NCBI GenBank assembly: GCA_021432655.1
Contig: MU271447.1
Coordinates: forward strand, 1 to 53,333
Direction of reading: 5' to 3'
Source of the DNA: Atractiella rhizophila
Lineage: Eukaryota
DNA: 53,333 nucleotides
Part shown: positions 2,163-2,594 of the stretch, one piece after another
How positions within the stretch are numbered: position 1 is the first letter of the stretch
How the letters are laid out: each line of letters opens with the position of its first letter
Position numbers and translations under genes: made by a program
Notes under the pieces: model-generated
Told to the model about the DNA's origin: nothing
Database searches by the model: none
Seen by the model: the letters and a program-made list of their open reading frames with translations, nothing else

Positions 2163-2594
2163 CTACATCTCCACTCCCTCCGTCTCCACAGGTGCCAAAG
2201 CCCGCTCCGAAGGATTCGATCCAATACACCTCTTCACGTCAACTGATCCATCAGAGCGTTTCCAAGGACAGTAAGCAGCAGCCCTCTCATATTCAACGTG
2301 AGTGGGAGAAGCGGGAAGTGCTCGCGCGGAAGGGTTGGAGCCAATGCATCTCTTCACATCGACTGATCCGTCTGACCGCTTCCAGGGACAGTAAGCTCTC
2401 TCCTCAAACTCTGCTCCGTTGGGAGATGGAGCCTGAGCGCGTTCAGGGGGGTTGGAGCCAATGCACCTCTTCACGTCTACGGAGCCGTCTGATCGCTTCC
2501 AAGGGCAGTAGGCGGAGAGTTCGGGATTGACAGGGTTGGGGAGGGAGACAGCGAGGGAAAGAACGGAGAGGAAGATTGCGAGGCTGAGCTTCAT
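2163..2594 (-). CDS. Secreted repeat-peptide precursor (KEX2-processed repeat protein, KEP-like), 143 aa, 3x AYCPWKRSDGSVDVKRCIGSNP
   Basis: Hydrophobic signal peptide MKLSLAIFLSVLSLAVSLP. Three identical 22-aa cores, each with two KR sites and two Cys, separated by variable Pro/Ala/Glu spacers ending in ER. All DNA differences between the cores are synonymous. Confidence 0.9.
   Translation of the reverse strand: MKLSLAIFLSVLSLAVSLPNPVNPELSAYCPWKRSDGSVDVKRCIGSNPPERAQAPSPNGAEFEERAYCPWKRSDGSVDVKRCIGSNPSARALPASPTHVEYERAAAYCPWKRSDGSVDVKRCIGSNPSERALAPVETEGVEM
2211..2513 (-). repeat. Three 66-nt coding repeats (2448-2513, 2331-2396, 2211-2276)
   Basis: Direct comparison: 10 third-position differences between copies 1 and 2, and no amino-acid change among the three copies. 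Confidence 0.9.

Follow-up and report, generated by a model that had tools for sequence, protein, structure and literature searches.

A transcribed candidate Kex2-processed repeat protein of Atractiella rhizophila with dibasic sites inside a conserved cysteine-flanked module

What prohormones are to animals, Kex2-processed repeat proteins (KEPs) are to fungi; thousands are predicted, and very few products or functions are known. The gene described here is located at 2163..2594 on the minus strand of a 53,333-nucleotide stretch of DNA (the window; contig MU271447.1, positions 1 to 53,333, assembly GCA_021432655.1) from Atractiella rhizophila, a root endophyte of the Atractiellomycetes (Pucciniomycotina). 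It is read as an expressed, small, secreted, multi-copy peptide precursor of the KEP type, an assignment held with somewhat better than even confidence. In the available parts of PMC6339444, and in similar terms in those of PMC9769878, a KEP is required to carry a signal peptide and three or more internal repeats, with KEX2 sites separating the repeated peptides. They are described as common across all fungal phyla, including the Basidiomycota (accessible sections of PMC6339444 and PMC7329392), and 7878 of them are reported in the same sections of PMC7329392. The present precursor is like the KEPs of these two partly available papers in its signal peptide, its three or more tandem repeats, its KR sites, its small size and its stand-alone gene. 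It differs in the position of the KR sites: instead of separating the cores, both fall within the most conserved module, enclosed by a Cys-x13-Cys loop. The words cysteine and disulfide are absent from the main texts of PMC7329392 and PMC9769878, and the accessible part of PMC6339444 mentions conserved cysteines solely for alpha-pheromone-like cores, with two cysteines in some filamentous-ascomycete cores. A KEP with dibasic sites inside the cysteine loop of a selected module appears to be undescribed in the literature searched. The core motif strings were found in no paper searched, nor in the supplement text of PMC7329392 and PMC6339444, which is possibly incomplete. Among the papers listed as naming A. 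rhizophila, all appear to be community surveys or taxonomy.

Three other systems were compared with the locus. The precursors of alpha-factor (MF_alpha) share the prepro architecture and the presence of identical peptides with synonymous codon drift. They are also the nearest named cluster in a feature search of the ESM Atlas (yeast MF-alpha precursors, 0.82 and 0.76), behind an unnamed ascomycete cluster (0.86); all three scores fall below the level that counts, where shuffled proteins score too. The present gene differs from them in having a 22-residue module with internal KR. An alpha-pheromone precursor was rejected, since the protein has no match to the Pfam families MF_alpha or MF_alpha_N (E <=10), the KR sites are not followed by the XA/XP dipeptides of STE13 processing, and the host is a basidiomycete. 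The KR sites of Ustilago maydis Rep1 are cleaved to give peptides some tens of residues long, which remain at the hyphal surface. Rep1 has many more repeats and is not known to contain a Cys-loop module or KR pairs spaced 7 residues apart. It is like the present precursor in being a basidiomycete KEP and differs in showing no sequence similarity to it. Rep1 is named among the KEPs in the available part of PMC6339444. In the K28 preprotoxin, according to the accessible portion of PMC5666379, a disulfide is formed in the endoplasmic reticulum (ER), Golgi Kex2 excises an internal segment, Kex1 trims the ends and the chains stay disulfide-linked. The likeness of the present precursor to K28 (and K1) preprotoxin and to proinsulin would concern a possible mechanism only, with no family assignment. 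There is no sequence relation, and those precursors are single-copy, of about 20 kDa and with a long gamma segment, compared with three mini-modules here that would lose seven residues each.

The precursor has 143 residues, encoded with all its features on the minus strand. It starts with a candidate signal peptide, MKLSLAIFLSVLSLAVS (residues 1-17, 2544..2594), continues with the 10-residue stretch LPNPVNPELS, and then holds three copies of the core module AYCPWKRSDGSVDVKRCIGSNP with spacers. Core 1 spans residues 28-49 (2448..2513; KR at 2493-2498 and 2466-2471), core 2 residues 67-88 (2331..2396; KR at 2376-2381 and 2349-2354) and core 3 residues 107-128 (2211..2276; KR at 2256-2261 and 2229-2234). 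Spacer 1, acidic and divergent, has 17 residues (50-66; 2397..2447), and spacer 2 has 18 (89-106; 2277..2330), giving a repeat period of 39-40 aa. The 15-residue C-terminal tail (129-143; 2166..2210) is homologous to the spacers in the spacer alignment. The six KR sites are at residues 33, 42, 72, 81, 112 and 121 and the six cysteines at residues 30, 44, 69, 83, 109 and 123, so that both KR of each module are within a C-x13-C loop. The KR sites are followed by S-D and C-I, and mark off three identical copies of SDGSVDV and two stretches of the form CIGSNP...AYCPW. The core has a net charge of +2 (four basic residues offset by two Asp), an isoelectric point (pI) of 8.9 and a grand average of hydropathy (GRAVY) of -0.74. 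The heptapeptide SDGSVDV has a net charge of -2 and no aromatic residue. A sequence scan of the precursor gave no N-glycosylation site. The N-terminus begins with MK, after which come a hydrophobic core of 14 residues and small residues at -3 and -1 (AVS|LP). The signal peptide was called by hydropathy, which exceeds 2 in sliding segments starting at residues 3-11, together with a (-3,-1) heuristic that offers candidate cleavage sites after residues 13, 15 and 17; cleavage after AVS17 was preferred.

The three cores are identical in protein sequence. Their DNA sequences differ pairwise at 10, 14 and 12 nucleotides, with no replacements. This variation falls on 17 sites, all third codon positions, and amounts to at least 19 substitutions, all synonymous. 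It involves 17 of the 21 synonymously variable codons, and the proportion of synonymous differences (pS 0.65-0.92) is saturated. The chance that 19 of 19 random changes would be synonymous is 8e-13 under uniform rates and 1e-11 at a kappa of 3. In the spacers 22 of 46 aligned residue pairs are identical, and in the cores all 66 of 66 are (Fisher P 5e-12). Despite this strong divergence the spacers still open with x-[E/A]-R-A-[Q/L] and close with an acidic E-x-E. From these patterns the duplications are judged to be old, and every copy of the whole 22-mer is judged to be under strong purifying selection. Since selection spans the whole module, beyond the KR-bounded heptapeptide, both the loop and its arms are judged to be functionally required; with selection equal on the two, the heptapeptide cannot account for everything. 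Either the arms belong to the active product, or they serve as a scaffold needed for processing. An open reading frame (ORF) on the opposite strand, 2144-2530 (+), was rejected as coding, because every variable site is a third position when read in the minus frame, and splicing uses minus-strand sites.

Part of the region 1800-3000 is listed in 24 public runs, of which four (X3, X5, X11 and X23) were compared in detail. The other 20 have low word shares (0.10-0.27) and were given no weight as evidence on habitat or host. X3 and X5 carry different organism labels, and contigs of both connect 2606 with 2666 and 2085 with 2152. On the minus strand the stretches left out have GC..AG and GT..AG ends, which makes them introns of a minus-strand gene. 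Contigs of the RNA libraries X11 and X23, root metatranscriptomes labelled root metagenome, cover the coding sequence (CDS) at 95-99% identity. The gene is real, transcribed and spliced. The CDS (2163..2594) comprises 143 codons and a TAG stop; its ATG is the first in the spliced mRNA, and an in-frame stop lies 3 codons upstream of it in the spliced model. Exon 1 of the 5' untranslated region (UTR) is at 2666..2742 and contains no ATG in the same model. Contigs of X3 cover 2661-2783, and contig depth drops past about 2742-2783, so the upstream limit of this exon is approximate. X3 (side 78) and X5 (side 20) both have contigs that skip the 5' UTR intron (2607..2665, 59 nt, GCACGT...CAG). The 3' UTR intron (2086..2151, 66 nt, GT..AG) begins 11 nt past the stop and is supported by joints in X3 and X5; in three contigs it is unspliced, and a retained form exists alongside the spliced one. 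The last exon of the 3' UTR is at 2000..2085, where a contig of X5 covers 2000-2085 joined to 2152, with an approximate end. Both introns of the gene are thus UTR introns, and the one in the 5' UTR uses a GC-AG pair. Contig depth in X3 was 900-12000 over the gene compared with 27-134 over the flanks, only a hint of high expression, as contig depth measures it poorly. Between the CDS and the four runs 13 positions differ. Nine of these are synonymous, including all four located in the cores (4/4), and the 4 replacement changes are confined to codons 15 and 16, in the signal peptide, and to the final codon, 143 (M143I). As judged from this comparison, the run sequences are too close to the window to reveal which residues matter. 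X3 also holds a second variant of the gene at comparable depth, with 7 differences over 2519-2608, where A15 and V16 are replaced, and 9 differences and 1 gap in the 3' region 2072-2177. This suggests a second allele or haplotype, or a paralogue, in that organism.

An earlier note on this DNA, made from the letters and their open reading frames, had proposed a fungal peptide gene of the KEP type with a signal peptide ahead of three identical cores. The ORF at 2163..2594 (-) bears this description out, the signal peptide by heuristic, and the gene fits the published definition of KEPs; a transcript was found both as spliced contigs (X3, X5) and as root metatranscriptome contigs (X11, X23). The note's count of 10 codon differences between copies 1 and 2, with no replacements, is exact. 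Its placing of both KR inside a C-x13-C loop agrees with the residue positions in 3/3 modules, and its view that purifying selection acts on the whole 22-mer is upheld by the synonymous substitutions and by the contrast between cores and spacers. It had also described the spacers as freely diverging. The strong divergence (22/46) stands, and the word freely is slightly overstated, since a recognisable start and end are kept.

With a signal peptide (heuristic), three identical repeats and dibasic KEX2 sites (KR, RR or KK; here six KR) bounding the repeated segments, the precursor shows every feature listed in the definition of a KEP. In the proposed processing, the N-terminal signal peptide would take the precursor into the ER, where each 22-residue module would probably close its Cys-x13-Cys disulfide. 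A Golgi kexin would then cut after KR, most readily at PWKR|SD and perhaps less well at DVKR|CI, and the basic residues would be trimmed off by a carboxypeptidase of the Kex1 type. The expected products are three acidic SDGSVDV heptapeptides, with the AYCPW and CIGSNP arms staying disulfide-linked as in K28 killer toxin or proinsulin. If the cysteines pair differently or stay reduced, two separate Cys-ended peptides of 28 and 29 residues would result instead. Kexin cleavage at these sites is considered somewhat more probable than not, because two KR pairs in so short a hydrophilic stretch (22 residues) of a secretory protein are not readily put down to chance. The product would most likely be a peptide for signalling or host interaction, modified lightly or not at all, rather than a dikaritin-type RiPP (a ribosomally synthesised peptide that is modified post-translationally), because the gene stands alone among housekeeping genes. 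A more specific outcome, rated unlikely, is a string of miniature proinsulins: kexin would excise SDGSVDV from pre-closed loops and yield a diffusible heptapeptide together with two-chain or daisy-chained peptides, which the endophyte would use as signals to its host or to its own hyphae. Such a product type, if true, is not described for fungal KEPs.

Several points weigh against the assignment as a processed KEP. Cleavage at the KR sites is a prediction from the sequence alone. Kex2 has preferences at the subsites around its cut; by this argument the second KR of each module, which abuts the loop cysteine, could hinder kexin if the disulfide has formed. Were the disulfides formed within modules and all six KR cut, the result would be a four-chain disulfide-linked concatemer, an odd product. 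The precursor has only three repeats. The N-terminus is signal-peptide-like as judged by heuristic only. AlphaFold2, run on the single sequence with no alignment, gave a mean predicted local distance difference test score (pLDDT) of 50 and a predicted template modelling score (pTM) of 0.22, and this model lends no structural support. No orthologue beyond near-identical sequences was found in the searches described below. In the available parts of PMC9769878 and PMC10589705, knockouts of KEP genes elsewhere in fungi are often phenotype-free.

The second of these points, on the loop cysteine, also counts in favour of the best-surviving alternative, in which the protein would stay intact as an effector-like secreted repeat protein of about 126 aa, with three disulfide-stapled loops, disordered acidic linkers and KR pairs kept for binding. 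Selection over the whole 22-mer, including the residues flanking each KR, would be expected of such a protein, and in the poor AlphaFold2 model the cores (pLDDT 59-71) scored above the spacers (<50). Small secreted proteins are also typical of root-associated fungi. Against this, each 22-residue module of this secretory protein carries two KR in a loop that is hydrophilic and probably exposed, and an accessible KR is the normal substrate of fungal kexin (accessible text of PMC6339444); the arrangement of identical modules and divergent spacers is, moreover, the architecture of a multi-copy peptide precursor. An uncleaved protein is thus regarded as improbable, with a chance that is small and still well above that of the alternatives that follow.

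The remaining proposals of the earlier note fared less well. It had likened the core to hairpin antimicrobial peptides, intact single-disulfide hairpins of about 25 aa that cuts at monobasic spacer sites (ER|A, AR|A) would free. The retained x-[E/A]-R-A after each core, the E-[E/R]-R or ERAA that precedes cores 2 and 3, and the acidic spacers, which are like the pro-pieces of cationic peptides, agree with such a scheme. The analogy is weak, because the core carries a net +2 rather than +4 and is hydrophilic, being neither strongly cationic nor amphipathic at a pI of 8.9 and a GRAVY of -0.74. Copy 1 is preceded by ELS (ELS|AYC), with no basic residue, the internal KR pairs would need to escape kexin, and AlphaFold2 gave no confident hairpin at its mean pLDDT of 50. 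Release of antimicrobial hairpins is accordingly rated very unlikely. The note had also named a RiPP as an option. Such a precursor could be dikaritin-like or belong to a new class, with tailoring enzymes outside the window or elsewhere in the genome. A signal peptide and KR-separated repeats are common to precursors of the ustiloxin type (available portion of PMC7329392), and the view to the left of the gene extends over only about 2.1 kb, with an uncharacterised Ser/Pro-rich ORF in it. The surroundings were scanned with Pfam over 181 stop-to-stop ORFs of at least 90 aa, covering about 51 kb to the right and about 2.1 kb to the left of the gene. Among these 181 ORFs no DUF3328/UstYa, tyrosinase, P450, methyltransferase, kexin or other tailoring family was found, which for UstYa/DUF3328 repeats the note's own observation on the window. 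The Pfam-matched neighbours are housekeeping genes, and the peptide gene stands alone among them. The cross-linking chemistry of dikaritins involves Tyr or other aromatic residues of the core, and SDGSVDV contains none. Gene context gives no support to the RiPP option, which is placed marginally behind the hairpins at a similarly low probability.

Relatives of the precursor were sought in several collections. Pfam gave nothing above cutoff; the best of 10 families at E <=10 was Hao_C (23.8 bits, cutoff 27), the rest were weaker, and these sub-cutoff matches were rejected as chance. A word-indexed search at near lengths returned 470 candidates, of which 0 scored. HMMER over 1.84 billion representative proteins gave 13 hits at E <=1e-3, all of them long repeat proteins: six EsV-1-7 cysteine-rich repeat proteins (PF19114; P0002, P0004, P0006, P0007, P0009 and P0012), one each with WD40, PG_binding_1, Big_12 and Mrr/DnaJ, one with a sub-cutoff Alba match only and two with no family. 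Their best single-domain E values were 0.065 with the full query and 5.8e4 with one repeat unit. All 13 were rejected as homologues, since their significance is made up of summed weak repeat-on-repeat alignments and they represent several unrelated families. Among the 219 pattern matches in JGI metagenome contigs, 0 were confirmed by tblastn, and tblastn of the precursor on the window gave no paralogue (best other match E 0.73). The exact precursor sequence is present letter for letter in the ESM Atlas and is absent from a collection of 15 billion proteins that holds the NCBI record of the copper ATPase described below.

The six PF19114 hits raise the idea that the repeats are a degenerate, secreted derivative of EsV-1-7 in which two of four presumed metal ligands were lost and the two cysteines re-used as a disulfide. 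A local match, YC..H[KR].DGMVD[VI]K to YCPWKRSDGSVDVK, is striking to the eye, the period of 38 aa is near the 39-40 found here, and a hidden Markov model of 27 EsV units scored single units of the precursor at 10.7 and 12.1 bits, values reached by 1 and 0 of 5000 shuffles. The resemblance is nevertheless treated as chance and this origin as the least probable of all, because the family was picked post hoc from about 1.8 billion proteins, the best-domain E values are no lower than 0.065 (full query) and 5.8e4 (one unit), the other 7 HMMER hits are unrelated or family-less as repeat-on-repeat summation would have it, PF19114 gave no Pfam match at E <=10 (cutoff 25 bits), only 2/4 positions of C-x4-C ... 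C-x2-H are kept (second Cys replaced by Pro, His by Lys), and a secreted location misfits a zinc motif.

The precursor comes from a barely studied lineage, the Atractiellomycetes, and its orphan status is largely explained by the near absence of sequenced relatives. It would represent one orphan among thousands of KEPs, an expressed and apparently lineage-restricted variant. The selection evidence for a 22-residue module with cut sites inside a Cys loop is unusually clean and makes it a well-defined target. If excision does occur inside the disulfide loop, the precursor would stand for a new type of KEP product. If the loop stays intact, KR pairs in KEP-like proteins would not be default cleavage sites, which bears on how KEP catalogues are built.

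Isolation of the lineage in the databases is also indicated by a copper-transporting P-type ATPase with HMA domains at 23426-26467 (-). Its 844-residue ORF (23426-25957, -) is 100% identical to an NCBI protein of Atractiella rhizophila, which places the window in this fungus, and the next best match, from Mixia, has 48% identity. Other Pfam-matched neighbours include a gene of the eIF2B family at 5.6-6.5 kb and an RRM protein at 12.4-13.3 kb, together with a cyclin, a histone, an SNF2/RING helicase and a SLAC1-type transporter. Weak or partial matches were obtained to ribosomal S6 (weak), to a fragment of an M28 peptidase, and to IDO and WW (weak). The RRM protein belongs to a nucleolin-like gene at 11568-13767. 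Low-complexity repeats, acidic and rich in Lys (with tandem repeats at 11794-11988), precede its two RRM domains at 12410-13306, and a 39-nt repeat rich in Gly, Arg and Glu follows at 13252-13334. The ORF at 3-1700 (-), very rich in Ser, Pro and Thr and immediately downstream of the peptide gene on the same strand, has at least 566 codons, runs off the left end of the window and matches no Pfam family. The first 2 kb of the window show an unusually high GC skew of 0.20. On the other side, two overlapping open frames of 184 and 169 aa at 3084-4104 (+) are divergent from the peptide gene; they match no Pfam family, gave no homologue in a search for longer relatives, and could represent a further gene specific to the lineage, with the promoter region in common. 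An assembly gap of 226 N lies at 51473-51698.

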